A stretch of 64,000 nt of DNA from Azolla caroliniana (lineage: Eukaryota > Plantae > Polypodiophyta). The DNA lies in assembly GCA_043228905.1 (NCBI GenBank), contig JBHGNT010000008.1:7874001-7938000 (forward strand), written 5' to 3'. Shown one piece after another: positions 752 to 32,884 of the stretch (position 1 is the first letter of the stretch; every line of letters begins with the position of its first letter). The notes below the pieces were generated by a model that made no database searches, was not told the origin of the DNA, and was given only the letters and a program-made list of their open reading frames with translations. The translations under genes were made by a program, and so were the position numbers.

Positions 752-765
752 CTGCGTAATAAAGG

Positions 766-2075
766 GGAATTAGTTATTCTCGTAACTAGCTAACTATCCT
801 AGTAGCTAATTAGCTATTCTAGTAGCTAGTTAGCTATTCTAGTAGCTAGTTAGCTATTCTAGTAGCTAATTAGCTATCATGGTAGCTAATTAGCTGTCCT
901 AGTAGCTAATTAGTTGTCCTAGTAGCTAATTAGCTATCATGGTAGTTAATTAGCTGTCGTAGTAGCTAATTAGCTATCATGGTAGCTAATTAGCTGTTCT
1001 AGTAGCTAATTAGCTATCATGGTAGCTAATTAGCTGTAGTAGTAGCTAATTAGCTATCATGGTAGCTAATTAGCTGTCCTAGTAGCTAATTGGTTGTCCT
1101 AGTAGCTAATTAGCTATCATGGTAGCTAATTAGCTGTCGTAGTAGCTAATTAGCTATCATGGTAGCTAATTAGCTATTCTAGTAGCTAATTAGCTATTCT
1201 AGTAGCTAATTAGCTATCATGGTAGCTAATTAGCTGTCGTAGTAGCTAATTAGCTGTCCTAGTAGTTAATTAGTTGTCCTAGTAGCTAATTAGCTATCAT
1301 GGTAGCTAATTAGCTGCTCTAGTAGCTAATTAGCTATCATGGTGGCTAATTAGCTTTCCTAGTAACTAATTAGCTATCATGGTAGCTAATTAGCTGGTCT
1401 AATAGCTAATTAGCTATCATGGTGGCTAATTAGCTTTCCTAGTAACTAATTAGCTATCATGGTAGCTAATTAGCTGGTCTAGTAGCTAATTAGCTATCAT
1501 GGTAGCTAATTAGCTGGTCTAGTAGCTAATTAGCTATAATGGTGGCTGATTAGCTTTCCTAGTAACTAATTAGCTATCATGGTAGCTAATTAGCTGGTCT
1601 AGTAGCTAATTAGCTATCATGGTAGCTAATTAGCTATCACGGTGGCTAATTAGCTGTCCTAGTAACTAATTAGCTATCATGGTAGCTAATTAGCTGGTCT
1701 AGTAGCTAATTAGCTATAATGGTGGCTAATTAGCTATCCTAACTAATTAGCTATCATGGTAGTAGCTATTGAGAGTAGCCAGTTACCTATGTAGTAGCTA
1801 TCATAGTAGCTAATTAGCTATCATGGTAGCTAATTAGCTTTCCTAGTAGCTAATTAGCTGGTAATAACGAAATAGCTAACTAGCTACCATGATAGCTAAC
1901 TAGCTAGCAGTACAACTAATTATCTGGTAGTACCTAAATTAGCTATTGAGAATAGCTAATTAGCTATCATGGTAGTAACTATTGAGAGTAGCTAGTTACC
2001 TATGTAGTAGCGATCCTAGTAGCTAACTGAGGTAAATGTAACTGATAAGCTAATTAGCTTTTCTGCTAACTGAGC
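766..2075. repeat. Intronic 20-bp minisatellite built on the palindrome TAGCTAATTAGCTA
   Basis: About 48 in-register 20-bp units at 781-1740, mostly alternating agtagctaattagctatcat / ggtagctaattagctg(t)cct, decaying to about 2075. It lies inside GT-AG intron 752-2127. Confidence 0.95.
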
Positions 2076-2127
2076 TAATTAACTTTCCGAGTAGAGTCAA
2101 AACAAATGTTGAGATAAATGTAAATAC

Positions 2128-2877
2128 CTGAGGTACATCAAGAAGATGAATGGGATGCTCCTCGTATTGATTTCTTCCAACACGTTTCCTGCATAAATCC
2201 TTTTTATTGGGTGAAACCCTACTCTCATTAGTCCAAAATATTGTGATTACATCCTTGATTTCAAATGTTATGGGTGTCATTGGCTTACATCTTGTAGTTA
2301 GCTTTAGTAGACTAGTTCCTTCACCCGAGGAAATTATACGGTTCATTGTATTGTACACTGTTTTTCTACTAACACCAATTACCTTAGATAGCTCACTGAT
2401 GTTTATATCGTCAACATCACTATTAAGTAACATCATTAGACTAGACCTTTTTAAGACAAGATCATCTTCTGATCTGCTCATGGATACGAAACTATTACGA
2501 AGATTATTTACTAAAATAGATGATATGTTTGCATTAAGACCATCACAATCAACTAAGTCCTTTATCGATGGATCATTACATATTCCATAAAGTACTACCT
2601 TCTTTTCTTCATTGCTGATGTGCTTGGTTTGAACATTGAAATAGTCTACAACCTTTCTCTCTATGATGGTAGTCGCATTACTTACATTCTCAGCTAAACT
2701 ATCCTTACCTTTACTGAGTGTGGCTTTCGTATCCTTCAACAATTGACGATGTTTCCTTTTTTTTTCTGCCCAATAGTTTCGTATGGCTTGTTGTGTCCTG
2801 ATAACATCATCCCTATCCTTATGATCATTGAGGGGTAATTCTAAACACCCTTCTTCCCCTTCCATTTGGCTAGACAT
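2128..2877 (-). CDS. Sola2-like transposase, copy 1, exon 1
   Basis: ORF 2050..2877 has an HTH-like segment (ISELSKVIGVSRKTVY) and FW...RVSPNKKD. A CAG|GTATTT donor at 2128/2127 splices in phase 0 to exon 2. Homologous to 31105-31416. Confidence 0.8.
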
Positions 2878-3179
2878 GTTAAAACCCTAAATTTCTAGAA
2901 AAAAAAACAAGTATTAAAGATGGCTATGGGCAACAACAATACACAAAAATATTCCACACAATACACAAGATTAGACACAACAATACACAAGATAATCAAT
3001 AGACAGAAAAGTTATTGCAATCCAAGACCGAACAGTAGAGGAATTCACTCTGTTGGATCCAACAGTTGAGGAGGCGATCCAAGACCGACCAATGGCAACA
3101 ACTGAGTGTAGAATGTTGCCATTGGATGAGTGAACTCCGTCAAATCGAAATGTGGAAGCAATCCGGGACTGGACAGTAG

Positions 3180-3950
3180 TGGCAACTGAGTATAGAATGA
3201 TGGCAATGGAGGAGAGAACCCCGTCAGATTGAACAGTTACCGATGATGCTTGAAACGCACATAGAAGGCACTTGAGAATAGAGTGGCATAGAGAAGAGAA
3301 CCCCGTCAGATTGAACAGTTACCAATGATGCTTGAAACGCACAGTAGCGGCCCCTGAGTGAGAGTGGAAAAGAGAAGAGAACCCCGTCAGATTGAACAGT
3401 TACCAATGATGCTTGAAACGCACAGTAGTGGCCCCTGAGTGAGAGTGGAAAAGAGAAGAGAACCCCGTCAGATTGAATAGCTCTTTGATTATGCTTGGAA
3501 CGCACAGTAGCAACCCCTGAGTGTAGAGTGGCAAAGAGAAGAGAACCCCGTCAGATTGAACAGCTCTTTGATGATGCTTGGAACGCACAGCAGCGGCCCC
3601 TGAGTGTAGAGTGGCACAGAGAAGAGAACCCCCTCAGATTGAACAGCTCTTTGATGATGCTTGGAACGCACAGTAATGGCCCCTGAGTGTAGAGTGGCAC
3701 AGAGAAGAGAACCCCTTGAGATTGAACAACTCTTTGATGATGCTTGGAACGCACAGTAATGGCCCCTGAGTGTAGAGTGGCACAGAGAAGAGAACCCCGT
3801 CAGATTGAACAGCTCTTTGATGATGCTTGGAATGCACAGTAGTGGCCCCTGAGTGTAGAGTGTCACAGAGAAGAGAACCCCGTCAGATTGAGCAGCTCTT
3901 TGATGATGCTTGGAACGCACAGTAGCGGCCCCTCAGTGTAGAGTGGCGGC
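3180..3950. repeat. ~83-bp tandem repeat upstream of transposase copy 1
   Basis: About 9 copies of gagaagagaaccccgtcagattgaacagctctttgatgatgcttggaacgcacagtag..cccctgagtgtagagtggca. Degenerate precursors extend back to about 3020. Confidence 0.93.
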
Positions 3951-4240
3951 AGGTGGACTCGATAGGGTTTAGCAACAGTGGTAGCAACTAACCCACAGTA
4001 CTCAACTAGAGATGGCCTACGTGATGTGGCAAAGGATCATGCATAATGGACCTAGGAATTTGATATATAATTTATGGTACACATTTATGGTGCACACATC
4101 AATTTATGTTGCACATTTATGGCACTCATTTACATATGTAATTAAAACACTCTAGTATTTTCAATGGTAGTTTTTTGCATACTTAATTTATTAATGATGG
4201 CTTTTTACTAAAATGACTATTTATCAATGGTAGCTTTTTG

Positions 4241-4300
4241 CATAGCTAATTAGCTATGTCAAGGACATAGCTAATTGTTTCCACTCGCATGCTTTCACCC
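4241..4300 (-). other. Putative 5' terminal region of Sola2-like element 1
   Basis: Contains palindrome catagctaattagctatg (4241-4258) and a second half-site. The minus strand from 4300 reads GGGTGAAAGCATGC, resembling GGCTCGAAGCATGC at 32864 upstream of copy 2. Confidence 0.45.
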
Positions 4301-4681
4301 TTGGATAGAATGAATGATATGTGCATGCACTATCATGATTTAGACAACCAATGAATAGAGAGCCTTTTAGAAAGGCACATCTATTCAAGGGGCCTAGGAA
4401 AAGGTATAAATATGAGGCTTAGCTACCCTCATAGAAAATCACGTCGGAAGGCTGCTGTCGTAGACACCGGTGGTGCGGGCTAGGCTTTCGTCTCGACGAT
4501 CGTGTTTATCTCTTCCAAGGTATTAGTCATCCTAATATCCGGCGGTATGGGACGTTAGTGGTAGGTTGGCTATGTCTAGATCATAGCTCGGGGGTGGTCG
4601 GGTGGAACGGGTTCTTCTATCCAATCTATTTTCTTCCTTTTTACTTGATTTGGTCTATTGATTAGTAATAGACTCTTAACA

Positions 4682-5597: not shown

Positions 5598-6474
5598 CTG
5601 GCACTAGTTCCCTCTTCGTCGCTATTTGTCCCACCGTGCATCTTGCACCACGCATTTGAAAATGCACACATTGTCGCTAACCGCTTTCGGAAACACGTTT
5701 GAACATACGTTTGTTGCGTATCCTTTTGCGACGTCCTCTCGCACAACATCACCGTGTTGCATTCCTCGACCTCGACGGCTTCCAATCAACATCACCATTT
5801 CCCGTACATTGTCCATTTGATTTCTCGCACATTTTGTCGTTGCCATGTCTTTCCCACATAGTATTCTTCGACTTCGTCTCCAAAGGGGGGTTGCCTTAGT
5901 GGTCGCCAAAAAGTGTTGTAGCTTTTTAGGGTTAGGGATGACGATTATGATAGCATGATGATAATGATGGTTGTGATGATGGAGATAAGAATTGTGGAAT
6001 TGATGAGGATGGGATGAGCATCGAGAAGCATTGCGGGGTGGGGGGTGGTGCCTAGAATGGCTCCACTCCCCTCCTAAGGGGGTTCAACGTTAAGGGGGAG
6101 GGAAGAGAGAGAGATGATGAGAGAGAGAGAGAGATTGAGAGAGAAATGGTTATTGTCTTCATTCATTCCCCATAAGGGGTTAAATAGGTACAAAGGGTTA
6201 GATACACAAGGGTGCAAGCCCTTTGGGCATTCACACCTGACCACTCACTCACACCTCTTTGTATCCACCACACTCACACTTACATTCACACCCATAATCG
6301 TATAACATTACACATACATATCAATACATTACATCTTTCACCCTCACTTATCACAGTTATCAATCACTCGTACATCTCATACGGTAACACACCTCACTCA
6401 ATTGAAGAAGGATTATATCACTGAACTAAAGTCACGATATGAACAAGTTTATGATATGAAACATGTCCTAAGCA

Positions 6475-9400
6475 ATGAGGTAGGAGATGTCTTTGCATGT
6501 GCATTTTCATGTGAACTCGATGGTGGCATTGAAGTTGATTAGGAAGATATAGAGGGTCCAACACTACCATGAAGTCTGAGGGTACCTCTCATATTGAAAT
6601 CCCAACTAAGACATCTGTGTTGACTCAACAAATTGCAAAACAAAGAGCCACACTAACAGAAATGCATAAAGAGAGATTGTTGCGTTGTATAGCTTCCATG
6701 TAAACAAAAATGCAAGCATTGCATGCCGATTTGGAAGAAGTTTCATCTGATGAGATGGCGGTAGAGAAACAATTCACATCTATGTGGAATACATACGAAT
6801 GGATTGCATCCACAATCCAAAATTCTGAAAGAGATGTGTTGAAAGAGGAGTTGAAGAAGGAGCTCACAAATATGGGTACTCATCTAGAAGCACAGAAGAA
6901 AAATCTAGAGACATGGAGGTCTTCTCGTTCTGAAATTGATGAACAGTTAAGAATCTAACATGTTTGATGAAGGGTATAAAAGAGAAAGGTTTAGATACTA
7001 TGTGTCTAGACGTAGTTGAGCACCCCGCTTGCATGGAAAGTACAATTACAAGTATTACTATATCACGGTAATGGTTTATATTTTTCCTTTTTGACCTTTT
7101 ATGGTATAAAATATCATTGCTGCTAATATAGTGTATGTTGTTTCTCGTTTCTAAAGGTGTTTATTCTGTGGGATTGGATTCAAGCTTGAGCCTATGGATG
7201 CTATCATTACACCATGCTTGCACACATATAATTTGTTATGCACTAAGTACCATTTCGAGAAAGAAAATATATGTTTGGGCTGTAAAAGTACAGTTGGAGC
7301 TGAATGATACATAGCTTGGGGTTTGAGAGTACACTCCTATGGTATGTGATTAAGCATTATGCAATTTTTATACTACGATTTTATAATTTTACTTTTGGTT
7401 CTGTTCTTATACCTATGAGTATTGTTCCCTCAAGATCCTTTATTCATGATTCAATATTAACATTACCAATTACATTGTACTTTTTGTGTCCACTTGACTT
7501 AGGCTTTGCATGACCAAACAAATAGGGACGAAGGTCTTGTTTGTTTAGTACTAACATTGTTTATTACCACATGAAATATCGACTTTTTGTGTCCATATGG
7601 TTCAGTATTGTGCCCTCAAGTCCTTTTTTTGTTGATTAAGTACTAACAATACTGATTACATTGTATTTCTTGCTGATCAGTTGATTAAGTATTGATTATT
7701 TAATACTAAAGGTCTTAATTGTCCACTAGACTACTTGTATTAGTACTAAATTGTTCATTACATTGTACGTTTTGTGTCCACTTGACTTAGGCTCTACATG
7801 ACCGAACAACACCACATGAAGGTCTTGGCTGTTTAGTACTAACATTGTTCATTACCACATGAAATATCGACCTTTCTGTTTCCAGGTGGTCCAGGTGGTT
7901 CAATATTGTGCCCTCAAGACCCTTTTTTGTTGATTAAGTAATAACAATACTGATTACATTGTATTGCTTGCTGATCAATTGATTAAGTAATTATTATTTA
8001 GTACTGAAGGTCTTAATTGTCTATAATTTGGACTACTTGTATTAGTACTAAATTGTTCATTACATTGTACATTTTGTGTCCACTTGACTTAGGCTCTGCA
8101 TGACCGAACAACACCACATGAAGGTCTTGGTCGTTTAGTACTAACATTGCTGTTTACTGATTATAATGTAGTCCTTCGTGATTAGTTGAATCCGTACTGA
8201 TTATTTAATACTTAAGGTCTTAAATGTCCACTTTATTCAGTACTAATAATATTTGTAATATTGGACTCATGTTATAATATGGACTCTTATAATATGTATT
8301 CTTATAATATGAATGTTGTAGTATCTAGCAACACCATGACAGGGAAGGTAATTGACCAACCAACCCCCGCAATACTACGTACAGAGTTTGCTGCTAATTC
8401 CAAAGTCCACGGTCGTTCCTTAGTGATACCTGATGAAATTTATGATGAAGATGAATGTATGAAAAAGGCCATTAGAACAGTTGAAGATGTGTTGCTTCAA
8501 ACAAATTCTCCTAGCTCGGCACGCCCTGATTGTGTGAATGGTAATGCTAATTGTGTTTGCACTTCTAAGTTCTGAAATGTTGGTATATTTCTAATTTCTT
8601 ATGTTTCTATCATAAAGCCTACGAAGAAGCGTAATGTTGCAAGAAAATTGTATGGAAAGAGGAAGAAATGCAAAGTTGATTGTTGTGGTGGGTCATATAA
8701 ATTCTCACAAACTTTGAGAGTTATAAAGTTATCTTTGTTAGACTAATACCACATACTTTTTTTTTTAGACAAGGAAGAAAAGATTAATGAAAATGGAGAT
8801 ACCAATTCAGAGCCACAATATGAAGAAGAATTTACTCACTTCCAGGTACACGTTCAGAACCCTCTCATCTAATACTTATTTTGACCATATTACCCTATTG
8901 ACAATAATGTACAAGTGTTGTGAAATCTTGGCATGATCAAGAGCCCCAACTTGAGACTGGCACCATCCCAAGCAATAATGATGAGTGTGAGGCCAATGCA
9001 AACCAGGACTTGCAGCACATGGCAAACACAATCATTTGCAAAGACTCATCTACAAAAGATCAGGATGACGATGTAACAGTTGGTAAAAATTTGTCCCTTA
9101 ACCTTAAACATTTGGCTAGGTGCCTTCACTATTTCAGAATGTGAATTGATCTAGTTCTTGTATCCCTCTATTTTATTTAGGAGTAGAAGAACGTGGAGAT
9201 TCCCAAATAGCATTAGATGATTCAGGCAGTTTATGGAGAAATCTTGATTATTCAGACTCAAACGCTACCACATATGAGGAATGTGAAATCACCCAAAAAG
9301 AGGAGCTAGAGTGCACAAAGAATGAGGTGACAAGCAACTTATACGAGTCTGTAGGAATGTGAATTTGACCCAAGGAGAGGATCATGGTTGTACAAAGAAT

Positions 9401-9883
9401 GAGGTGTGTGTCCAGAACACCGCAAGTAGCCTTAACTTATGGCAAGATTGTATCATTAAGGAGACTGTAGCAACCACCCAAGAAGAAGAATAGGGTGGTA
9501 CTATGAATGAGGTGTCTTACCAAAACACCGCAAGTAGCCTGCAGTTGGAGCAAGATTGTAGAAAGAACCAAGTGTCTAGCATCATCAACGAGGAGTTTGC
9601 AATGAAGACGACAACCCTAGAAGAGGAACATGTTTGTACTACTAATAAACAATTAGTGCAGAACATCGGTTCTACCCATGAAGAGGAGCTGGGAAATTTG
9701 AAGAATGAGGTGTCCAATGACTTCCAGGAGATTAATGGTAAGACTATCGACCGCATCCTCTTGGAAGTGTGTGCATCTCAGGCAGTTGCAATAGAGCACA
9801 TTGTTCCCTCAAGCTTGGCTTCCCCCTCCAATGATGAATTGCCACTCAGTATTTTACTATCTCGTGGCTTTAAGATGAAGTAG
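6475..9883 (+). pseudogene. Decayed multi-exon gene of unknown function (coiled-coil, basic and acidic segments), convergent with transposase copy 2
   Basis: Coding-like segments at 6710-6958, 8330-8540, 8618-8690, 8769-8845, 8920-9082 and 9181-9883. Several have GT/AG borders (tttag|ac 8768, cag|gta 8845, tttag|g 9180). In-frame stops are present. Confidence 0.5.
7440..8250. repeat. Three ~290-300-bp diverged tandem units rich in TTAGTACTAA
   Basis: Anchor cacttgacttaggc at about 7491, 7779 and 8081, with recurrent tagtacta. Confidence 0.85.
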
Positions 9884-9974
9884 GGTGTGAAATCTGAGAA
9901 GATAGCTTCCAAAATTTGGAGCATTACAAGATCCAGAAAAATAAAACCAAATTTTATTGTATTTAGATTGTTGT

Positions 9975-10580
9975 CTTTAATTGATTACCTGTTTCTTGAC
10001 ACTACTTTGGTTTACTTATCCAAAATGTGAATTTGATACTATTTTAGAACTCATATATTTGAGAATGATCACATTGACACTTGTATGCACACACATGACA
10101 GTGAGAAGATGAGCGATGAGTGGAATGAACACTCCTATCTTAGATATGTCTAGGTTAGTAAACACTTAACACAGTTTAAGTACTAACTTGATATGCATTG
10201 TAATTAGTTGTCTACTACCTTGTGCCACTCAGTAGTCTGAGAGATTGTTGTCTGTAATTGATAGGAATGCTAAGTTATTGATTACCTGCTTCTTGACACT
10301 ATTTTGGTTTACTTGTTATGCACACATGTGATAGTGAGAAAATGATTGATGAGTGGAATGAACATTCCTATCTTAGATATCTCTAGGTTAGTAAACACAT
10401 AACACAGTTTAAGTACTAACTTGATATGCATTGTAGTTAGTTGTCGACTACCTCGTGCCACTCAGTAGTCTGAGAGATCGTTGTTTGTAATTTATAGGAA
10501 TGCTAAGTTATTGATTACCTGCTTCTTGACACTGTTTTGGTTTACTTGTTATGCACACATATGATAGTGAATTTGATACA
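9975..10580. repeat. ~232-bp tandem duplication with partial extra copies
   Basis: Anchor tgattacctg(c/t)ttcttgacact at about 9982, 10279 and 10512. Blocks 10087-10318 and 10319-10560 are near-identical. Confidence 0.85.
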
Positions 10581-11529
10581 TATGAACTCCTAAAGAGTTA
10601 TAGGCATAACATAGTATGTATACTTGAACAAACCTTTGTATTAGTACTATCATTTAACATGTTCAATCTCCCTCAGGAGTGTACCACACACTAGACAAAA
10701 CAAAGTGGATATAATGAAGGAAAGAGTGTGCTATGAATGATGAGTGTTCCTTACTTTGAACATGTGTGAGACAGTGAGAAGAGGAGTAAAACTTGGAATG
10801 ACCACTCCTAACTTGGATACCTCTAGGTTAGTAAAAACTTAACACAATTTGAGTACTAACCAAAGAGATTTTCTACCAAGCACTAGACATTTTATGTAAA
10901 AGAAAAGTACATATCTAAAGCAAAGAGGGATATCGTTAGATTTGTCATTGCAAACTCATAATAATTCAAAAAGATACATATGAAAACCCAAGATGATATA
11001 TTTCCTTTAATTTGTAAGTCAGAGTTTGAATACATGCGAAAGTTACATATGAAGACCGTGTGCCATTCTAAGCATTAAAGAGGGAGACTTCCCCCAATAT
11101 GTGTTCATGTACCTCTTTGGGGACCTTGTAGACAATGTTGTATCCCTTAATCTTGTGCTTTGCTTGAGTCATAGTGAACTTGATTGAGATAATGGCATGA
11201 ACATAGATTATTGCGATGGGTGCATCTTTTAATAATGCATATGTATTCTTGCATTGTGGCAACTTTGCATAGTAGTTGCCATACATGACAAACTCACCAA
11301 CATTGAACATGTTGCCCCAGCCATCCCTCACGACTTCTTCCAATATTGTATTTCCTTGCTTGCACACCACAATGTAGTAGTCTTCAAAATCTTCATTTTG
11401 AGGAGATTTGAGCACCGCAAAATGATCTCCAACTTCCAATAATATTGCCAAGTCCTCACACTGGTTGTAGTAGACAATATTGTCTGAATGTCCGTTTTCT
11501 TGGATATCCACACATTGTTCTATCTCAAG

Positions 11530-12359
11530 CAAGGTTGTTAGGTACGTTAGATACGGTATGGGTACCATATGTATATAATGTATTAATACACGTATAGTAC
11601 CTCCCAATTTAAAAATACGTTAAATACGTTTTTTAATATGTTAAATACTTATAAAATACATAAAATATGTATAGTAAGTTAAATACTTCTAGAATTTGAA
11701 AATTATTTAGTTTTCTAAAAATATATGTAATATTGTAAAAAGCATCTATGTTTACACAATTTCTACATCCTAAAATGCATATAAGAACATTTGAACATTT
11801 CACATCCTAAACTACTTATAATATGGATGTCGACATTCACTTATTCTATAAATCAGCGTGTGTATCACGATGTTCTACTTCAAATTGTAATTATTTATGA
11901 TTATGCCTTCATAGATTGAGGAATCATCTACGATTATCACACTCAGGATAGGTTTTTGTCTACTTTTCTCTATTGTCCATCTTCATCTTCATCTTCATCT
12001 TCATCTTCTTCTATCTTCTATGATTATCACACTCATAGTCAAGAGAGGTTTCTTTCTTCTTTTCTCTTTTTTTTTTCTTCTTCTTCGTCATCCTCATCAT
12101 CTCTTATGTTCTTCTTTCTTCCATCTTTTTTGCTTCGTTTTCACTAAAATCATTTTTTTCTTTTGCTTTTTGTTTGGGTTTTACTTACATTATTTTATGA
12201 ATTCGTATTATACTTGTTTTTTCAAATGTACGTTACATACTGTATTGGACAAATGTACATGACATTTGACTAAACAACATTGAGGTATAGTACGTACTAT
12301 ACAAATTATGAGGTACTATACGTATTAAAACGTTAAATACGGGTACGTAAACAACCATG
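11530..12359. mobile_element. hAT-like MITE (830 bp) inserted in a transposase exon
   Basis: 8-bp TSD ATCTCAAG at 11522-11529 and 12360-12367. TIRs CAAGGTTGTT / AACAACCATG, subterminal TACG/CGTA motifs and a non-coding AT-rich interior. Removing it restores ..KLQKLEIEQCVD.. Confidence 0.88.
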
Positions 12360-12859
12360 ATCTCAAGCTTCTGTAGCTTCCATGGCTCCACAATTGATAG
12401 ATTGGTGCATTCATCCCACGCTTCATCTAAACACATAGAACAAAAGCACGATAAACTGCGGAATAACAATTGTGTTGTGTCCTTGCGACTAAACCCTAAA
12501 ACACAATGGGACTTCCGCATCCCTTTGATGGTTTTACAGCCATACAATTTACTCCTATCCACCTCATTAGCACGAACCTCAATAAACAATCTATTCTTAC
12601 AATCATTTGACATCTTCCATGTGAGCCACTCCACAACATCATGTGCATTTTGTAACTTAGCACCTTTATTATCCAACTGCTCATTTGTAAGAGCACGCTT
12701 GATCACAGCCCCCGCACCATGGTTCTCTCCCTTTCCATGTCTAGACCCGAAGTAGTTCCATTGTATCCTAATGTTTGTCAATGAGAAGTATCTGGGTGTT
12801 TTGCATGACAGTTAGCCAACAAACATATTTAGTGCATTACTGGAGCGTACAATTCTTAA

Positions 12860-13930: not shown

Positions 13931-14613
13931 CTTAACACGGTTATTACCATAATCAGTACTAGTGAATCTAGGAGGGGAGAACGAAATGGCCAATCAGTTC
14001 AAATTCACATTTCAAGACAATACTGCTTCATGTAGTAGGATAATTACTAATTGTATTTTATACAAACATTTATAAGTACTATGGAGTATTACCAAAATAG
14101 ACTTCCATTTATAAGTAACAAACATATGGATTATTTCCTCACCTTGCAATGAAGTAGAAGGACCAAGCCACCTTAAATTGCGAGGCAGCACCATCAGACC
14201 AGACCCAATGGCGATTAAAGTTAACACCCAAGGACAATAAATCTGCGTGGTGAAGCTTAAAACAATGTTGAACAAATAACGTATCATGCTTTTTATCATC
14301 TGAAATGTAGAATATTGATTTCATATGTAACTCTCTAGTAGCAAATATGTACAAGTATTGTACATTGGTCATTGTACCAATGCATTGACTGAACCTCATT
14401 TTGAACTTTAAGTGTATAGTTCTCTGCAAAGTCAATAACAGATACCATACTCTAAATATTTCCATCTCACAATATGACAATTATCTACATCAAGCTCCTG
14501 TCCACAAAATAACGGTTGTGGGCATGTTGGCATAAAAGGCCGACTCCTTCCAAATTGTGTCCGTCCGAGTGTGAACTCGTTAATAAGTTAGGTCTTAGTA
14601 TATAAGCAAATAC

Positions 14614-20034: not shown

Positions 20035-21814
20035 AATACCTAACATTGTAAAGAGTGACGAGTGGAAGAGAGACGAAGAGACAAAGAACTAATTCTCTAG
20101 TTCTGCGTATTGTATCTCTAAGAGAGAGTGAGAAAGAAGCAATAAAGCTTTCCATTAAAGCTTGCACTGTGTAAGTCCACGCCTATTCTATCTTTCTGTT
20201 TGTGTTGTGTGTTGTTCATAACCGATAACAAATCCATACACGTTTCCGCAAAACGCACTCGTTGTCAACAATTGGTATCAGAGCCACCTTGTTGTCCGGT
20301 GGCAACAGAAAACAGAAGAAGAAGCTGAAAGAAAATACCAGGTCAGAAATTTCAAGTTCACAAAAAGAATATGGCTTCAACATCCGGAGCAGGAGTTGAA
20401 ATCAGAAAATTCGACGACAAAACTTTTGCCCTGTGGAAGGAGATAATGCAGGATGTGCTAATCATCTGAAGGCAGGTCGAAGCCACTAGGCACAGCGAAA
20501 AACCTACCTCAATGACAACCAAGGAATGGAGATCAATGGATGAAATCGCACGCTCCACCATCCGAATGTCCATTTCAGCATGGCGAAAGAAATGATAATG
20601 TTCTCATTGTGGGAGAAGCTACATGCCATTTATGAAAAGAAGTCCTCATCTTCGAAATTGATTTTGATCAAACAGTTGTTCAACCTGAAGATGAGAGAGA
20701 CCGATCCGGGAACCTCCCACATCAACACCTTCAGCCGGGTGTTGTTAGAGCTCTTGTCACAAGTGATCAACTTCGAAGAGGAAGATAATTCCCTTGCACT
20801 CTTATTGAGCTTGCCGGTGAGTTGGGAGGTATTCTGCACCACATACGCCAATAGCCGACTGATCTTGAATCTGGATGAAACAATCGGCCAAGTCCTCACA
20901 GAGGACATTCGGCGAAATCGATGGGACTAACTATCGATGAGTAAGCAGAAGCCCACCACTCAACCGAGTTGTTCGATCGACAGAGTCGAACGAAAGAACA
21001 AGCCGACAGAACCGGTCAACATTACAACCGATCGAAAACGAGGGGAGAATGACAATGCTCGAAGTCGAAAAGAGGTCGATCAAGTGAGTACTACACACAC
21101 TACAAGAAAGTTGGCCACAATATTTCCAACTACTAGTCAATAAAGAGAAAAGAGAGTGCTCCACGATCCTAGCGGAATCGGGGACGTTCCCACTCAATCG
21201 ACTCTCCAATCGGCAACCAGGTCAATGTTACCGACACCCGATCCGAAGAAATCCTCTCCCAAGAGGATTCGATGATAAGATAAGTCCTCTACAGTGCACA
21301 AGCTGCACACACGTGGCTACTAGACTATGGTGTCACATTTCAGGTGACCCCGAACATTGAATGGTTTTCGAACAATTCAGCCGACGCCAGCGGCACAATC
21401 CAACTAGGAAACAGACAAGAGTGCAAGATAACAGGAATTGGAGAAGTTCCCATCAGATTACCAAATGGCAACATAATAACCCTGCACCATGTTCAGCACG
21501 TATCCAATCTAAAGAGGAGTCTAGTCTCCATCAACATGTTAGCCAAAGATGGGTACAAAACAACTCTACATGAGTTGACATGGGTGATCAACCGAGGAAA
21601 CCTCAAAGTCGGGAGTGGGTAGAAGTACCATAATCTGTACCCATTGATGGCGATCAACCTTGAAGGGGTAGTGAACATAGCCAAAAAGACCGACCCAAAC
21701 CTATGGCATGGCCGACTCGGCTATATGTCACAAGCCGGACTTGATCGGCTGATGTTGGTTGGCTACATCCCAAAACTCTAGGCAAAGATGAACTTCTGTG
21801 AGCATTGTCGATAT

Positions 21815-22680
21815 GGGAAATAGACCCGAAGTCTGCACTCTCTCCATTACGAGATGGTACGACAGTCCCTAGATCTCGTGCACATAGACATCAATGGGCC
21901 CATGCCAGAGCGATCACTAGGAGGCTCCTGGTACTTCATCACATTTGTAGATGACTGTACACGAAAAGGTTGGGCAAACTCCATCAAGTCCAAAGATGAA
22001 GCACTCAAGGTCTTCATTCGATAGATATCTCGGAAATAGACCCGAAGTCTGCATTCTCTCCACTACGAGATGGTACGACAGCCCCTAGAGCTCGTGCACA
22101 TAGACATCAGTGGGCCCATGCTAGAGCGATCACTAGGAGGCTCCCGGTACTTCATCACATTCGTAGATGACTATACACGAAAAGGTTGGGCAAACTCCAT
22201 CAAGTCCAAAGATGAAGCGCTCGAGGTTTTCATTCGATGGATATCTCGGAAATAGACCCGAAGTCTGCACTCTCTCCACTACGAGACGGTACGATAACCC
22301 CTAGAGCTCGTGCACATAGACATCGGTGGGCCCATGCTAGAGCGATCACTAGGAGGCTCCCGGTACTTCATCACATTCGTAGATGACTATACACGAAAAG
22401 GTTAGGCAAACTCCATCAAGTCCAAAGATGAAGCGCTCGAGGTTTTCATTCGATGGATATCTCGGAAATAGACCCGAAGTCTGCACTCTCTCCACTACGA
22501 GACGGTACGATAGCCCCTAGAGCTCGTGCACATAGACATCAGTGGGCCCATGCTAGAGCAATCACTAGGAGGCTCCCGGTACTTCATCACATCCGTAGAT
22601 GACTATACACGGAAAGTTTGGGCATACTCCATCAAGTCCAAAGATGAAGCACTCGAGGTCTTCATTCGATGGATATTTGA
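21815..22680 (+). repeat. Four tandem 216-bp (72-codon) copies of the integrase N-terminal segment in copia A
   Basis: Anchor gacccgaagtctgca at 21823, 22039, 22255 and 22471. Confidence 0.93.
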
Positions 22681-23189
22681 AGTGGAGAACCAATCGAGAT
22701 ACAGAGTGAAGACACTCCGATCCGATAACGGAGGTGAGTACACCTCTAGAGCAGTCAAAGAGTTCTTGTCCGGAAAAGGGATCCGACACCAAAAAACCGT
22801 TCCATATACACCCAATTCTTCAGCAAGTCGGACTGAAGTTGGAATTCTGAGCCGAGGCATTGTAGACAGCAGTGTACCTAATAAATCTGGCGCCATCACG
22901 AGCAATCAAGCTCGAAGTGCCACAGGCACTATGATCAGGCAAACAGCTGACCTACGATAGGCTCCGTATATTCGGATGCGAAGCCTACACATTCATTCCT
23001 AGGGACAAAAGGACAAAGTTGGCACCTCATGCAACGAAGTGCATATTTCTTGGTTATGGAACCGATGGGGACTTCCGCTACCTGCTATGGGACCCCGAGA
23101 ATAGGAAACTGATCCGGAGTAGTGACGTGGTCTTCAATGAAGACTCTATCTTCTCTCAGAGGAACCAACATAAAATAATTGTTAAGAAG

Positions 23190-26100
23190 TGTTAGGAAAC
23201 AGGTCTCTCCGGATGGGAAGTGAGAAGAACAGTGTTGATGAGCAAACTCGACCTCGGCCGAAACCGGATGTGGAGTACCCGACTACGGAAGACCCGGTGA
23301 GAACCGGATGACGAGTACCTGACAACGGAAGACCCGGTGAGAACCGGATGTGGAGTACCTGGCTACGGAAGACCCGGTGAGAACCAGATGACGAGTACCC
23401 GACAACGGAAGACCCGGTGAGAACCGGATGAGGAGTACCCGGCAACGGAAGACCCGGTAAGAACCGGATGATGAGTACCCCGCAAGAGCCGTATGGTGAA
23501 GGCCCGGTGAGAAGTGCTCACTGGATGAAGGGAGATATTCGTAAATATGTTTTCTGAGAGTCCATCGGGGCTATATTTGTAAATAGCCGAAAAGTCATAT
23601 TAGTATAAATATGACTTAGGGCAAACTTAGTGTGAAAGTAGTTGTCATTCTTGTTGGTGCAAGATTAGAGTGCATTATTGTGTACAGAGAGAGAGAGAGA
23701 GAGGAAGAGGTCGTTGCCTCTGTTGTAACCGCCACCTGTGGCGAATATAGCAAGCTCGAGGTCGTTGCCTCGGTGCTTTACTATTGTACATTGTGAAATA
23801 GTGATAGTTTGCAGTCTGTGGGCTACCGTGGTTTTTCCCTAGTTTGGGTTTTCCACCTTAACATCCTGTGTACTCTTCTCTTCATTGTGTCGTGCGTTCA
23901 TTACCTGTTTTCTGTGTTTGATCTTAGGCCTGGTTGTGGCCGAGCGTTGTTCATCGGGAGCGTGTGTTCCTGAAAAAGTGGTATCAGAGCGAAACAACAC
24001 AGAAAATGGACGAATCGTTGGGAGGCATGTTCAAGCTCACCGGCTCCAACTATTCCGTGTGGAAGTCGAAGATGAGGGACATGCTCGTGGTTAAAGATCT
24101 TTGGTTTCTAGTTCAGTTCGGGGACAAGAGACCAGACAAAATCGACGCCACGATATGGGAGGTGATGCACATGAAGACAACGACTTACATACGGTGCTTC
24201 ATCGACATGAGTGTATACAACAACTTCAATGAAGAGAGCCAGGCTCATGAGCTCTGGGAGAAGATCGACATTATGTTTCAGGTTTCGGCATTTTGGAAGC
24301 TAGTAAGACTCCGTTACCAAGATGGCTCCAGCATGGCGGAGCACATGAATGCCTTCCAGGGGTTGATCCACCAGGCAACATCATTGGAAGTACCTCTCGC
24401 TGATGAGGTACTAGCACTACTCCTGCTCGGTTCCCTCCCAGATAGTTGGGAGACGTTGGTTGTCACTTTGGGCAATGCCGGGCCGGAAGGAAAACGGTTA
24501 TCCCTAGCAAGAGTGAAGTCGAGCTTGCTAGATGAGGAGACGCGTCAGAAAGATAAGGATACGAGCTTCGACTCCAAAGCACTCCTTACCGAATCGGAAC
24601 GCGGAAGACAAAGGAACCGTAGTCCCCAGAACCGGGAGAAGTCGGGGACACGGTCAAAGTCAAGGGGGAGGCCTACCTGCTTCTATTGCGGCAAGCTGGG
24701 ACACTTCCAGAAAAACTGTCGGCACTTCCGAAAAGACAAGGAAACCGATGGCACCGATTCGAAGCAGACACTGGACCGGAAAGGTAAAGACTGGAGGGGA
24801 ACGAACCGGAAGGGAACGACGGCAATCGCGGCAAGTGAAGAAGAGTTGATGCTCATCACCGAGGAGAGTGAGCTAAACCTTGTCGGCGACGAGATGACCT
24901 AGGTGGTCGACTCCGGAGCGTCGTTCCACCTTACCACGGACCGGAAATGCTTCTCATCCTACTCAACCGGTGATCACGGGTGTGTCCGGATGGGGAATGA
25001 AGGTACATGCCGAATTGTCGGCATAGGAGACGTGTGGTTGACAACACCAACCGGATGCAAGCTGCTGCTGAAGGATGGCCGACACGTTCCGGAGGTTCGT
25101 CAGAACCTAATATCAGCCGGTCGGCTAGATGATGAAGGCTACACGGGTAGCATCCGGAATGGTGTTATGAAGTTCAGCAAAGGGAGCCTGATTGTGGCTC
25201 TGGCCCGGAAGGTAAACACGTTGTACCTGATGAATGCCCGGTTATGCCCGGGAGAAGTGAACGTGGCATCCAACACTGCCGATGAGCTGTGGCACAAGAG
25301 GTTGTGTCACATGAGCGAGAAGGGGAGGAAGAGGCTTGCAAATGACAAGCTCATTCCAGTGAAGAATGTGCACTTGGAGAAGTGCACTGATTGTCTTGCC
25401 GGTAAACAAAACCAGACCTCCTTCCGATCGAGGCCACCGATGAGACGTAAAGCACCACTGGAGGTGGTGCATACTGATGTATGTCAAGTGGACACGAAGT
25501 CACATGTAGGATCGCAGTACTTCGTGACGTTCATAGATGACCACAACCGAAAGTTGTGGGCCACACGTTGAAGACGAAGGATCAGGTGCTATCCGTCTTC
25601 AAAGAGCTCCACGCGAGAGTGGAAAGAGAAACCGGTCGGAAGTTGAAGGCGGTTCGAGCAAATAACGGAGGAGAATACCGGGGGCAGTTCGAGGAGTACT
25701 ACCGCTCGAAGGGAATCTGGCTCGAATATATCGTGCCAAAGACGCCGGAACTAAACGGGCTGGCCGAGAGGATGAACCGGACCATAATGGAGAGGTTCCG
25801 GAGTATGCTGGCGCATGCAAAACTACCCAAGAAGTTTTGGGCTGAGGCACTGTCGACGGCGACATATGTGATAAACAGATCACCCTCAGTACCGTTGGAT
25901 GAAGACACGCCTCTGGACCGATAAGGAAGTGTCCTACTAGCATCTGAAGATATTCGGGTGTCTCGCGTACGTGCATGTAGCTAAGGACCGGAGAGGAAAG
26001 TTAGATCCAAAGACCCGGCCATGCATATTCCTCGGATACGGCGATGATGAGTTCGGTTACCGAGTGTGGGATCCGGTTGACCAGAAGGATTTCCGGAGTC

Positions 26101-27207
26101 AAGATATTATCTTCATGGAGGACAAGACTCTTGCCGACTGGGAGTCGGAGAAGAAGATAATGAACTCCGATGAGATTCGGACACACCCGGCTAAGAGCCG
26201 GTTGACACTCGAGGAACCAGCCGGTTACGGTAAGGATACCGAACCGGCAGAAGAAGAAGTAGAGGAAGCTGAAATCAGAATCGGATTCGGATGAAGAACA
26301 AATAGTGGAGCCGGTTGCCGAAGGCCAAAGACGAAGATATCCTCTCAGAGAGAGAAGGGCCCCTCGGAGATTTCCGGATACAGAGCATGTGCTGCTGACC
26401 GATGACGGAGAGCCAGAAAGCTTCGAAGAAGCGAAGGATGACACCCACAACCGCAAATGGTTAAGTGCCATGCAGGATGAGATGGATTCCTTGCATGAGA
26501 ACCATACATATGAATTGGTGGAGTTGCCAAAAGGAAAGCGGGCACTCCGAAACAAGTGGGTGTACAAGTTGAAATCGGGAGATGCCGGCAACCCCCCGAG
26601 ATACAAAGCCAGGATTGTGGTGAAGGGGTTCCAGCTATGGAAGACCCGGTGAGAACCGGATGAGGAGTACCCGGCAACGGAAGACCCGGTGAGAACCAGA
26701 TGACGAGTACCCGGCAAGAGCCGGATGGCGAAGGCTCGGTGAGAAGTGCTCACTGGATGAAGGGACATATTCGTAAATATGTTTTCTGAGAGTCCATTGG
26801 GGCTATATTTGTAAATAGCCGAAAAGTCATATTAGTATAAATATGACTTAGGGCAAACTTAGCGTGAAAGTAGTCATCATTCTTGTTGGTGCAAGATTAG
26901 AGTGCATTACTATGTACAGAGAGAGAGAGAGAGAGGAAGAGGTCGTTGCCTCGGTTGTAACCGCTGCCTGTGGCAAAGATAGCAAGCTCGAGGTCATTGC
27001 TTCGGTGCTTTACTATTGTACATTGTGAAATAGTGATAGTTTGCAATCTGTGGGCTGCCGTGGTTTTTCCCTAGTTTGGGTTTTCCACGTTAACATCCCG
27101 TGTACTCTTCTCTTCATTGTGTCGTGCGTTCATTACCCATTTTCTGTGTTTGATCCTAGGCTTAGTTGTGGCTGAGTGTTGTTCATTGGGTGCGTGTGTT
27201 CCTGACA
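23190..27207 (+). mobile_element. Copia C nested in copia A, with RT/RNase H/PPT deleted
   Basis: Perfect TSD AGAAG. 5' LTR 23190-23975 has a 40-bp tandem repeat; PBS(iMet) at 23979. Decayed gag-PR-IN at 24006-26632 jumps from RT-start YKARIVVKGFQ into the 3' LTR repeat array. LTR remnant at about 26633-27207. Confidence 0.93.
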
Positions 27208-29210
27208 AGAAGGTATCCTTCGAAGAAGACAGAACTGTCGTAGAAGAACCGTCCCATCAGACCGAATCAGAGAGTCAACAAACAGTTCAACTCCAGCTAG
27301 CTGACTACTTCCTTGCCGACACTGAATCGACAAGAAGTCCCATCGTCGAACTCAAAGACAAAGTCATCAAAGACAAAGCTGAATCGACAAGGATCGATAA
27401 AGGCAGAGTCACCAAGAGGCAAGTCAGAAAATTGTCGACAATACCCACAGGGGAGAACAACCAGACACCGCCGAAATCCGAAACTGGGGGTGGGACACCT
27501 AACAAGACTCCTGATACATATGGTTCAACAAATACCAATCTTCTAATAGAACCGATCGAAGGATCCAAACCTAACATCTCAGCACCCTGGAGATCTGGAC
27601 AAGCTCGAAGGAAAACAGAGTTCTATCAACCAGATGAAGTCGAACCAAGCACATATGAAGAAGCTATGGCCGCACCGGACGCTGAAACATGGCTACAAGC
27701 CATGAAATCCGAAATTGACTCGATTCACCAAAATCAAACATGGGAGTTGGTCGAACTATCAACAGGAAGAAAGCCGCTACCTTGCAAATGGGTGTTCTGA
27801 TACAACTATGTATCTGACTTAGAGAAACTCAAGTACAAAGCTTGGCTTTGCGCAAAGGGATTCAAACAGGAATACGGGGTCGACTACGATGAGATATTCT
27901 CACTAGTAGTCAAGATGACCACCCTCCAACTCCTATTAGGAGTTGTGCGATAAAAGACCTAGAGCTCAAGCAGATGGATGTAAAGAAGACATTTCTACAC
28001 GGAGATCAGGAAGAAGACATATACATGTCTTAATCGACAGGCTTCATGGCGACGGGGGAGGACAATCACCTCGTATGTCGACTACAGAAAAGTCTATATG
28101 GCCTCAAATAAGTGGTGAGGATGTGGTACCAAAAGTTTGACTCCTACATACGGTAGCTTGGATACAACAAATCAGACTCTGACCTATGCATGTATGTTCG
28201 ACAACTGGTTGACGAGTCCAGGATCTACCTGATCCTATATATCGATGACATGTTGATTGCAGGGAGCAATCAAGCAGAGATCGGTAAGCTGAAGTGGAGC
28301 CTTCACGCAAAGCTCGCGATGAAGGAACTCGAACAAGCCCGACACATAATGGGCATGAGGATAGAGCGAAATCAGATGAGCAAAAATCACCCACTCTCCC
28401 AGTGTGAATACATCCGCGAGGTGTTGAAGCGCTTCAACATGGAGAATGTGAAGCCAGTACCGACACCACTTTCGACGTCGATCAGACTATCGGACAGAAA
28501 CTCTCCTTCAACGGACAAGGAGAGAGAGCTTAATGGAAAGATACCCTACTCATCGACTGTAGGAAGTATCATGTACGCAATGGTGGAGACCTGACCCGAC
28601 CTAGCCTATGATGTACTAGCCTTTGATGTACGAGTGGTTAGCCGGTACATGTCAAATCCATGAAGGAGGCATTGGGAGGCCATCAAGCACATCATTAGGT
28701 ATCTAAAAGGAACCACAGATGCACATCTGACTTTCAGACTGACAACCTCATCCGAAATCGAAGGCTACACTAATTCTGACTATGCTAGAAATACAGATAG
28801 TCGGAAATCGACATCACGCTACATCTTCACCTATGATGGCAGTGCAATATCATGGAGGTCAAAACTTCAAGAGTGCACGACTCTATCTACCACAGAAGCC
28901 GAGTACATAGCAGCTAAGGAAGCGATTTGGCTGCACCGATTGTCTGCCAACTTCGGAACTGCAAGCCAAATCGACCAACCAGCGCTGACCAACTATTGAG
29001 ACTCACAGAGCGCAATACACCTCATCAATAATCCCGTCTACCATGCGAAGATGAAGCACATTGAGTTGCGGTATCATCATATCCGGGAGCTCGTGACCGA
29101 GAAGAAGCTCGAAGTCTGGAAGATCTACACCGAAGTGAACATCGTTGATTTCCTAACGAAGCCACTCCTAGATCAATGCTTCGGAACACTAAGGACGAAG
29201 ATGGGATTAC

Positions 29211-30057
29211 TGACGGGAATCCAACACCCCTTATGCCCTAAGCTCGGCCACAACCGAGCTTCTTTTCATACACAGAAAGAACAGGTAATGAAACACGACA
29301 CAGAGAAGAGAAACAGTACACAGGAGGTTAACGTGGAAAACCCCAAACTAAGGGAAAAAACCACGGCAGCCCACAGGCTGCAAACTGTCACTATGTATGA
29401 ATATACATAACACTGAGTACTTGGAGGCAACGACCTCGGACTCACGATCTTCGCCACAGGCGGCGGTTACAACAGAGGCAACGACCTCGTCTCTCTCTCT
29501 CTCTCTTTGTACAGTTACACACTCTCTCTTTTCTTGCATCAACAAGAAAATAACAACAACAACCTAAAAGTTTGCCCTAAATCATATTTATACTAATATG
29601 ACTTTTCGGCTATTTACAAATATAGCCACGATGGGCTCTCAGAAACATATTTACGAATATGTCTCTTCCTCCGGTTTGCACCGGGCCTGCACCATCCGGC
29701 TCTCCGTAGCCGGGTACTCCTCATCTGGTTCGCACCGGGCCTGCACCATCCGGCTCTCCGTAGCCGGGTACTCCTCATCCGGTTCGCACCGGGCCTGCAC
29801 CATCCGGTTCTCCGTAGCCGGGTACTCCTCATCCGGTTCGTACCGGGCCTGCACCATCCGGCTCTCCGTAGCCGGGTACTCCTCATCCGGTTCGCACCGG
29901 GCCTGCACCATCCGGCTCTCCGTAGCCGGGTACTCCTCATCCGGTTTGCACCGGGCCTGCACCATCCGGCTCTCCGTAGCCGGGTACTCCTCATACCGTT
30001 TCGGTTCGTCGGCACTATTCTTCTCCCTTCCCATCCGGAGGGACTTGTCTCCCAACA
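29211..30057 (-). mobile_element. Solo LTR related to copia C/D, with six 54-bp tandem units
   Basis: TG..CA ends and perfect TSD ATTAC (29206-29210, 30058-30062). Reverse-homologous to 23190-23975. Array at 29671-29994. Confidence 0.93.
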
Positions 30058-32884
30058 ATTACGACAAGCGACCGAGTAGAAGAAAGCGGAACGAGGGCAA
30101 CAGGTAAGAGCTAATCGACACTCATACTATACTTATGGCGACTCGACTACTTGCCGACAAACTTGTAACATAAAACTTAGTTCAATTTTGTAATGTAGGT
30201 TTATAGGGGAGATAACCCCAAGCACTTGTATATGTATGAAAGAGTAGTCCTTTTATGGAAGAGTTTGTTGACATAAAAGGCCGACTCCTTCCAAATTGTA
30301 TCTGTCTGAGTGTGAGCTCGTTAATAAGTTAGGGCTTAGTATATAAGCAAATACCTAACATTGTAAAGAGTGGCGAGTGGAAGAGAGACGAAGAGGCAGA
30401 GAACTGATTCTCTAGTTCTGCGTATTGTATCTTTGAGAGAGAGTGAGAACGAAGCAATAAAGCTTTCCATTAAAGCTTGCATTGTGTAAGTCTACGCTTA
30501 TTCTGTCTTTCTATCTGCGTTGTTTGATGTTCATAACCGACAACAGATCCATACATGTTTCCGAAAACTCACTCATTGTCAACAGGGAAAACCTTACATG
30601 TTCTTAGAAGACACGTACGATTATGCCATTTAGATGATGTTTTTCACAAACAAAAGACGTCCATAACTTAGAACTTGATGCATAAGTCATGTTGTGCGCA
30701 TTACATTTATTATCACTCCCATTTGGTGTACATACCTCACAAGTGCAAACACACTGATCCCCATGTATACCCTTAGAATCATTACACATAGTGTTCAGAC
30801 CAAGCCTTAACATGTCCATTTTAATGTGGTACACACAACAACATGTGTTCGTTTCTTTTAACTTTCTAACAAAAAACGGTTTCAAACCTTGGAACTTGCG
30901 AAATCCAAGATTGATGCTAGGATGTTGGTCTTTAAAGTTCATGAACAATTCAGCCTACATCACTCAATAAACAGTTAACGTTAATGAAATCCTTGAGTAA
31001 ACAAAAAATATTTAAAACCAAATAGATAAAAAAAAATGAATTACCTCAGTCATCTCCAAGAAGTGTCTTCGGTGAATCTGATACCTACCCCGACTTATAT
31101 GTTGTCAACATACATCTTTTTTATTCGGTGAGACATGTGTGTTTTTTGCCCAAAAGGAATCCAGTTTGTCAATAATATCATGAGACAAGGCATCACATCG
31201 TCGTCTACGACCTAACCCCAACCACTTAAATGGATTTGACCGTATATTTTTCCGATGCTTCCTCAAGTTCCTTCCTTGAATACCAAGGGCTAAGGCAACT
31301 TTAGTATCATTATTTTCTTTTCTTGTACCATTTACAACCATGTGAAGGGTTGCTCTCTTTGCACCAAGCTTATCTATGCTCTCTACCCCTTTCACTAAGT
31401 GTAAGGATGACTTCATAGACTCTACAATCTCCTCCTAAACACATTGGTCCCTAAACTGAATATTCTCCATGTTTTCATTCAAAAGTTGATGGTGCAACAC
31501 TCTAGAGATAATATCCCTACAATCTTCCTTGGTAAATCTCTCAATTACTTCTAGTAAATAATGGACTATGTGAGGAACCACCCGTCTCTTGCTCCTCTCA
31601 GACATCGATTTACGACATGACAACTCACTCTCCTTGACGACTACCATTGTCACTCTCATATATTCTAGCACCTAATTTCTTGTTATTTCAGTACCTAGTT
31701 AATCAAAATAAGTGATTAATACATCGTAGAATAAACATACTTAATATGCCATAGCATAAACATAAACTAGTTTTCGAATAAACATGTATGATTATGCCAC
31801 ACTCATGTATTCCTTTTACAAAACAATTAATTTTTAAGAAAGACAACCATCATTAAAGTTAGACTATTCTGAAATGGATGAATGAAAATGAACCAAATCT
31901 AAACCATAAAACCACGGCTTTAGAGAATCTAAAACATAAAACTGAAGTATCACAAAAAACATATCTCACTTTTCATTTTCATCAGATACTTTGAATTTCA
32001 TATTTCTATGTTGTTATCTCTTCTAGAACCCTAAGTTACCTAAATTACTAGTTTGACCATAACATTAGGCTAATATAAAAGTCGAGTTTTAGGTGTTATC
32101 CACATGTGCATGCCATCATTGGCAGAAGACTATAATCCATTAAGATTAGGAAACAATACAAATAACAGTATGATCAACGTAATATGGTAACGATGAACAA
32201 GTAGATGATGATAATGACAATAATAATCATGATGAAAATGAATACGTAATCTTTTCAGCATAAATTAATCTTAAATTTTGCATTCCAAAGGATAAATTGT
32301 AAATATTAAAGCCTAAAAATTGTTCTGAAATAACCTACGTCATTAATAATAGCTCTAATCAACAGTAGTGAAGTTATGCTACAGAAATGTAAGAGTTATA
32401 CCGAGTGAAGGAGAAGATGGAGAAGACATACCGATGGAAGGAGAAGACATACTGAGGGAAGGAGAAGACATACCGAGGGAAAGAGAAGATGGGGAAGATG
32501 AGTGATGCAAAGAACAACAAAACGATGGGGACATTCGCGTGTTGCGAATACTTGAGATGCAAAGACCATGAAAATGATGAATCTGAGATGGTCCCAATTA
32601 GAAGAAGCAAGAGGAGACGATAGTGAGAAGCGCCACAATCAATTAATGTGGCATGCTAAATTAAAGTGAGGAGGGAATAGCCCCCAAAATAGTCCTGAAT
32701 ACGTAGCAACCTTGTCCCCCCATTCCCTGACTTAAATGCAACATGTACTACCTTCACCCCACTCCCTAAAGAGATTTTCAATTTTTCCGATTTATTAATT
32801 TTTTTTTAATAATTACTTAGTACTAACAATACTAATATGGTTTGACTATAGCATGCTTCGAGCCACACGTAATATACATTTTCA

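Follow-up and report, generated by a model that had tools for sequence, protein, structure and literature searches.

The locus analysed here raises the question why two DNA transposons each amplify a short palindrome of their own in introns and again close to a putative terminus, as claimed in a preliminary description of a 64,000-nucleotide stretch of the Azolla caroliniana genome (contig JBHGNT010000008.1, positions 7,874,001 to 7,938,000; hereafter the window). This motif-array layout is real and reproducible across families. The motifs lie at the places described and far exceed control counts, both introns concerned (752-2127 and 12792-14142) are bounded by GT...AG, and at the termini 5' terminal inverted repeats (TIRs) start with the bases 4300 and 32864. 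By analogy to VANC of the VANDAL transposons, we presume that the intronic and terminal arrays act as binding platforms for the product of an accessory gene of the elements, which would have an activating role; we assign this reading a probability of roughly 40%.

Both elements are Sola2 transposons, as the preliminary description had proposed. The predicted transposase of family 1 (864 amino acids), to which element 1 belongs, contains the DFAENY, QxEIQSxHW, ISxDxxHD and WSDGAASQFK motifs and the G(H)xKGxxDGxGxxxKR block according to a by-eye match with the Repbase Sola2 alignment (PMC3627910, Additional file 10). Short TIRs and a 4-bp target-site duplication (TSD) are further likenesses to the elements described there, the 4-bp TSD being a stated Sola2 feature in that source. 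Such a TSD flanks all eight complete Sola2 copies found; a TSD-based TIR search revealed no complete element among the matches listed. The elements of both families measure 12-14 kb with TIRs of about 25 bp, the complete copy of element 1 comprising 12,012 bp with 25-bp TIRs and the TSD CCAA. Named homologues of the transposase were detected in liverwort, ferns and conifers, and the model of its catalytic region (pLDDT 82), examined for an RNase H-like fold, had its best Foldseek matches among integrases, transposases and NurA, none of them at E<=0.001. Between subfamilies omega ranges from 0.15 to 0.39 for the transposase, with 0.39 for exon 1 against a subfamily copy (rows with fewer than 35 aligned codons, wrong-strand or spurious, were ignored).

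Element 1 contains TAGCTAATTAGCTA in 21 exact copies within 752-2127 (46 within one mismatch in this intron) and once at 4243, the intron array consisting of 54 units of 20 bp. The 12-mer referred to as motif 1, AGCTAATTAGCT, occurs in element 1 in 81 exact copies, which are all non-coding: 37 in the transposase intron, 36 in the accessory-gene intron following the RING exon, five between the gene ends and one plus two at the termini, where the 3' end carries the latter two; none was found in 5,320 bp of exons. In element 2, which belongs to family 2a, the motif TTAGTACTAA (motif 2) is present in seven exact copies at 13023-13674, in five at 7545-8135 and in one at 32817, the array of the transposase intron having a 41-bp unit and an 82-bp dimer. 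The repeats at 7440-8250 are located inside a predicted intron of the second, convergent (accessory) gene, at a position equal to that of the second array in family 1 (locus L011, 4700-6440) and in family 2b. Genome-wide, 27,017 exact matches to AGCTAATTAGCT compare with 15 for the reversed control, and 15,095 to TTAGTACTAA with 3,515. The motif amplified is AGCTAATTAGCT in family 1 and (T)AGTACT(A) in family 2, and both families carry it in a transposase intron, in the accessory-gene intron that follows the RING exon and close to either end, a pattern consistent with selection for dense motifs in non-coding DNA.

A search with exon 2 of family 1 gave 549 candidate matches in the 523-Mb genome, 40 of which were scored at about 99.9% identity, and the 5' end at window position 4300 is identical in 17 of 19 further family 1 copies fetched. 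The transposase intron is bounded by GT...AG in 22 of 23 rows. Among 20 young copies with exon 2 about 99.9% identical (open in 16), all GT...AG, its length varies between 1,166 and 1,797 bp; the array thus changes length rapidly between invariant splice sites. Intronless homologues (L177, L202, L205, L211) align straight through the exon 1-exon 2 junction of family 1, and family 1 itself lacks an intron at the codon where family 2 has its array intron. No RNA data set was listed for the array introns, and the contigs aligned to positions 1-775 showed no junction between exons 1 and 2. The boundaries of the latter were found in only ten of 20 rows, since the boundary pattern failed on divergent or broken copies; all ten hold 5-20 AGTACT. 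In the younger subfamily 2b the AGTACT core is embedded in unrelated units of 123/146 bp and 52/104 bp (41/82 bp in 2a), and the family L153 introduced below likewise has unrelated units of 177 and 14 bp.

The specificity of the motifs between the Sola families, also part of the preliminary description, was borne out by a set of 30 loci that share a TIR pattern and were sampled in their order along the genome. The set comprised 13 family 1 ends, ten family 2 ends and seven others (one of these being a family 2 end with an insertion). Motif 1 was detected in 13/13 family 1 termini (within two mismatches; 12 within one) and AGTACT in 0/13, while AGTACT was present in 10/10 family 2 termini and motif 1 in 0/10, so that no cross-over between the families occurs in these 23 termini. 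Eighty related loci from metagenomes were searched for further families, and other-motif arrays were found in the same transposase intron. For eight families with both a 5' end and the intron we compared intron and terminus by 8-mers against 1,000 shuffles. The intron matched its own terminus best in family 1, family 2a, L153 (ACCATTAAT), L154 (CTAATAGTGCT) and L159 (TAGGTGAAA), each with p 0.002-0.003, that is in five of six array-bearing families, three of the five coming from other organisms and having other motifs. The co-variation of the intron motif with the terminal motif, as suggested previously, is consequently supported, whereas that with the helix-turn-helix (HTH) sequence of the transposase is not: the HTH helix is nearly equal in family 1, L153 and L154, its starts GVSRKTVY, GVTRKVLY and GVSRKVLY accompanying three different array motifs. 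Neither L153 nor L154 was found in the A. caroliniana genome, the best matches reaching 75-78%.

In four families the 5' TIR is followed by a dyad of the form arm-TGTC-NNN-GACA-arm (window 4243-4277; L153, 82-108; L154, about 1815-1845; L159, about 65-90), the arms of which vary by family. This dyad may be a transposase site distinct from the array motif. Arrays resembling TAATGGCTA were also observed near distant Sola2 relatives in host-associated metagenomes (L179, 12810-14275; L219, 3378-3904; L224, 18557-19111).

Both families carry the second gene, convergent to the transposase gene; the copy of element 1 is located left of the window. Its product is predicted to consist of an N-domain without a Pfam match, a coiled coil, a RING finger, a region of peptide repeats and a NIF/FCP1-like domain (E 2.7e-7), the catalytic motif of which looks degenerate. 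The gene of family 2 encodes a homologous N-domain and RING, although the N-domains of families 1 and 2 share an identity of only 16-18%. With an omega of 0.26-0.55 for the accessory exons between subfamilies, the gene is under purifying selection. Splicing of the accessory gene was observed in a relative: a 78-nt GT..AG intron is skipped in contigs of three presumed-RNA runs of one study, from relatives about 95% identical, and retained in a fourth aligned run, which is probably DNA. The ESM Atlas gave no usable match for the N-domain. Its structural model is weak (pLDDT 65), and the best fold match, the DNA-binding domain of pSK1 Par (Z 4.1, root-mean-square deviation 2.7, 46 aligned positions), remains below a meaningful level, as do the near ties, which include several MerR-like domains.

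The motifs are not exclusive to Sola elements: one Copia and one chromovirus lineage carry them, an unexpected sharing with retrotransposons that have long terminal repeats (LTRs). Generic dispersed satellites, the outcome that would have spoken against the earlier proposal, were not encountered in the sampled loci, the LTR copies forming compact clusters. Among the sampled loci with motif 1 (first listed matches, C1), 94 of 102 exact sites belong to family 1 Sola elements, seven to Copia LTRs and one is unassigned. The Ty1/Copia element nested in element 2 contains a motif 1 cluster in both LTRs (14903-15006 and 19859-19980), which differ by a single 18-bp motif unit and otherwise agree throughout. 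The cluster sits in the U3 region, and its copy number varies among copies and even between the LTRs of one insertion. Of 20 Copia LTRs sampled through an exact match to the initial 21 bases (583 such matches; sample L248-L267), 14 had the cluster, the other six being relatives devoid of it. Clustered motif 2 loci outside Sola elements resemble chromodomain Ty3/gypsy elements in 12/12 picked cases. The chromovirus lineage is abundant; in 30 loci selected by LTR end and primer site (2,111 matches), the final 115 bp of the LTR contain 2-5 AGTACT in 23 cases and none in seven (L232-L243 and L268-L297 examined). Six of these seven form one branch (99/100) and the seventh is an unrelated long branch; this tree cannot separate gain from loss. 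A likeness in flanking sequence between the Copia U3 and the family 1 3' untranslated region (UTR) (p 0.002-0.007, in a region chosen post hoc) and an exact 18-mer common to a chromovirus LTR and a family 2a 3' end hint at a possible capture of the motifs by LTRs from Sola elements.

To explain these observations we propose that every family of Sola2 builds up a single short motif, usually a palindrome, in introns, in the intergenic region and at both ends, and that these arrays would provide high-density sites for the element's own accessory protein. The N-domain of this protein presumably reads the motif, whereas the RING and the degenerate NIF-like domain may act on chromatin or transcription proteins, so that members of the family would stay active in the face of silencing by the host, as VANDAL elements do through VANC. 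Introns would tolerate the arrays since they are spliced out, and the two LTR lineages may have taken up the motifs in order to use the same factor. The accessory protein is favoured as reader because an array resides in an intron of its own gene in both families, because this gene is conserved and spliced, and because the HTH of the transposase does not follow the motif.

Proteins of transposons that counter silencing in a sequence-specific manner have been described for Mutator and Spm elements of Arabidopsis (PMC5735166; bioRxiv 10.64898/2026.08.24.746577). In VANDAL elements tandem repeats of the motif occupy VANB21 and VANC21 introns and the region upstream of VANA21, VANC6 motifs occur in the unrelated AT9TSD1, and VANC proteins contain peptide repeats (PMC5735166). 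The Sola2 families of this study resemble this system in a family-specific motif in tandem repeats within introns, including that of the accessory gene itself, and terminal non-coding DNA, in the variable motif copy number, in a fast-evolving accessory protein with peptide repeats and in an unrelated element carrying the motif (PMC5735166, PMC10398659). The architecture is therefore not without precedent, contrary to what had been supposed. They differ in having a Sola2 transposase and a 4-bp TSD instead of a Mutator-type VANA, a novel N-domain, a RING and a NIF-like domain instead of DUF1985/DUF287, mostly palindromic motifs, convergent genes and LTR retrotransposons as sharers. Furthermore, binding and demethylation have been shown for VANC, whereas the corresponding functions of the Sola2 accessory protein are putative. 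Owing to the Sola2 transposase and the lack of VANC domains, the elements have a VANDAL/VANC-like layout without being members of that group. If our explanation is correct, the presence of a VANC-like layout in a different superfamily and a different lineage of plants would indicate a recurrent strategy. It would also yield several natural pairs of protein and motif, which lend themselves to simultaneous testing and might serve epigenome editing. Should LTR lineages exploit the factors, bursts of DNA transposons could drive bursts of unrelated retrotransposons.

Several findings weigh against the accessory protein as reader of family-specific arrays. At the 8-mer level the transposase-intron array of family 2b does not match its own terminus (p 0.19), and the two distant families L179 and L168 show neither a clear array nor a match. 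Off-diagonal matches also occur (for example the family 1 intron against the L153 terminus, p 0.016). At k=8 five such cells fall below 0.05, of which three pair related families; the families compared are few and related and therefore do not represent independent trials. No match to DUF1985 or DUF287 was obtained for the accessory protein in a Pfam search of exon pieces, which returned RING and NIF only, and the protein has no demonstrated DNA-binding fold. The motif is located 25-75 bp from both ends, the distance at which transposases usually bind. Motif 2 contains GTAC, the core of sites bound by SPL proteins (PMC3617394).

The position of the motif relates to the reader favoured in the preliminary description, the transposase itself, for which subterminal sites would assemble the transpososome and internal arrays would permit self-activation or titration. 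In both families the motif indeed lies no more than 75 bp from either end, and in L159 even inside the TIR; exon 1 encodes an HTH, and the transposase of AtMu1 is by itself able to activate cognate copies (bioRxiv 10.64898/2026.08.24.746577). According to the same source, however, AtMu1 binding peaks at the TIRs and not at internal arrays. This binder is further weakened by the near-identical HTH helices that accompany different motifs, by L153, which keeps a family 1-like TIR-proximal dyad but amplifies another motif, and by the conserved accessory gene, which had previously been missed and would be left unexplained. Other regions of the transposase (zinc-binding, C-terminal) could read the motif. 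Taken together, we regard recognition by the transposase as doubtful.

TAATTA and TTAATGG are homeodomain/WOX sites. The elements might have gathered binding sites of host transcription factors independently for their expression, SPL sites at GTAC in family 2 and the chromovirus and sites of a homeodomain-type factor at TAAT in family 1 and Copia. This would directly explain the sharing with unrelated LTRs, and GTAC is precisely the part common to the 2a, 2b and L158 arrays; SPL proteins bind a GTAC core and the moss protein PpSBP2 binds GTACT (PMC3617394). Nevertheless, host factors seem unlikely as the cause, given that the sequence on either side of the core is specific to each family and differs between close ones, that only one of 102 exact motif 1 sites in the sampled loci lies outside Sola or Copia elements, and that the accessory gene is again unexplained. 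Even if host factors were responsible, class I and class II elements would have converged on one cis code.

Neutral amplification, by which terminal palindromes would be copied inward by repair or slippage and expanded where introns tolerate them, with LTR copies as passive captures, appears still less probable. It agrees with the quick changes in array length, with palindromic units that may favour slippage, and with the flank likeness and the shared 18-mer between LTRs and Sola elements, as capture would give. It does not account for the recurrence of the core in unrelated units, in several introns and in five families with different motifs, nor for the conservation of core positions at 94-100% versus 49-87% at four spacer positions (the units not being independent), and other tandem repeats in the elements are without the motif. 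Finally, that the arrays act as RNA, their self-complementary introns folding into long hairpins for small RNAs or the tuning of splicing, is very improbable, since the good folding of the family 1 arrays (z -17.9 and -11.0 against shuffles; inverted arms of up to 370 nt) is not shared by the remaining seven arrays tested (z -4.9 to +0.9) and the subterminal copies are left unexplained.

In extension of the accessory-protein reading one may speculate that Sola2 elements of seed-free plants evolved a sequence-specific anti-silencing of their own, independently of VANDAL, by means of a new DNA-binding domain combined with RING and a pseudo-phosphatase, and that Copia and chromovirus lineages hijack it via their LTR motifs; this wider scenario is improbable as a whole. 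Among related systems, Spm/TnpA and AtMu1 are similar in that a protein encoded by the element binds to densely clustered motifs of cognate elements, which it activates, but their effects are mainly subterminal or at the TIRs (bioRxiv 10.64898/2026.08.24.746577), whereas kilobase-sized intronic arrays dominate here. Amoebozoan Sola2 members also carry a cargo gene, which is a Fanzor and thus differs from the cargo found here, and the available portions of PMC3627910 do not mention motif arrays. In Sola1-1_Ec32 of Ectocarpus, likewise a Sola element, an accessory gene on the opposite strand was proposed to bind its own element; it belongs to Sola1, its cargo is a ParB-methyltransferase, and the word palindrome is absent from the accessible text (PMC12477816). 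Neither motif arrays in Sola2 elements nor the use of a DNA-transposon factor by LTRs turned up in a literature search, the scope of which excluded subscription journals as well as supplements in bioRxiv.

The coordinates of the elements are given in Table 1.

Table 1. Features of the two Sola2 elements and the nested Copia element, in window coordinates.
Feature	Position	Strand	Remarks
Element 1, 5' part	1..4300	-	remainder left of window (L011 2289-10000); TIR pair and 4-bp TSD CCAA
Element 1 transposase exon 2, catalytic region	1..751	-	runs on in L011 to 8910
Element 1 transposase intron	752..2127	-	20-bp array of AGCTAATTAGCT: 37 exact, 53 within one mismatch
Element 1 transposase exon 1 (HTH)	2128..2877	-	Pfam HTH_11 E 5.8e-5, below curated cut-off
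83-bp tandem repeat, 5' leader	3173..3947	.	without motif 1
Subterminal motif 1	4243..4277	.	full palindrome 4243-4256 and half site 4268-4277, within larger dyad
Element 1 5' TIR, 25 bp	4276..4300	-	4300 is first base of TIR
Element 2 (Sola2 family 2a), decayed	6390..32864	-	lacks its 3' end; interrupted by nested LTR retrotransposons
Accessory gene of element 2, broken	6390..9883	+	N-domain and coiled coil ~6390-6990; RING exon ~7150-7340; low-complexity exons 8303-9883
Predicted accessory-gene intron after RING exon	7341..8300	+	contains 7440-8250 repeats with motif 2
Stretch between the two gene ends of element 2	10079..10860	.	233-bp repeat, four AGTACT
Element 2 transposase exon 3	11069..12791	-	insertion inside at about 11531-12360
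Element 2 transposase intron, 41/82-bp array of (T)TAGTACTA(A)	12792..14142	-	GT...AG
Element 2 transposase exon 2, second part (DFAENY to WSDG region)	14143..14524	-	
Ty1/Copia element nested in element 2	14614..20034	-	LTRs 14614-15060, 19570-20034
Element 2 transposase exon 2, first part	30584..30954	-	
90-bp intron, no array	30955..31044	-	same codon as family 1 array intron
Element 2 transposase exon 1	31045..31620	-	start approximate
Subterminal motif 2 (TTAGTACTAA)	32817..32826	.	motif scan
Element 2 5' TIR	32840..32864	-	matches family termini; 32864 is first base

The catalytic exon of element 2 was split by an older LTR element (14525-30583), into the left LTR of which the motif-bearing Copia element inserted later (TSD AATAC). 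The leader repeat of family 1 has a unit of 83 bp, and family 2 leaders carry other repeats of 53 or 210-213 bp or a TGATTA-type array (L196). In the copy of element 1 a duplication of about 250 bp spans the transposase stop and the 3' UTR (L011, 8910-8440). On C14 a distance of 134 kb separates two oppositely oriented family 1 copies whose flanks are identical (L021 and L022); they likely represent a segmental duplication or an assembly repeat. Furthermore, a 300-bp derivative of family 1 resembling a miniature inverted-repeat transposable element (L065, 2761-3057) has kept both termini and one motif.

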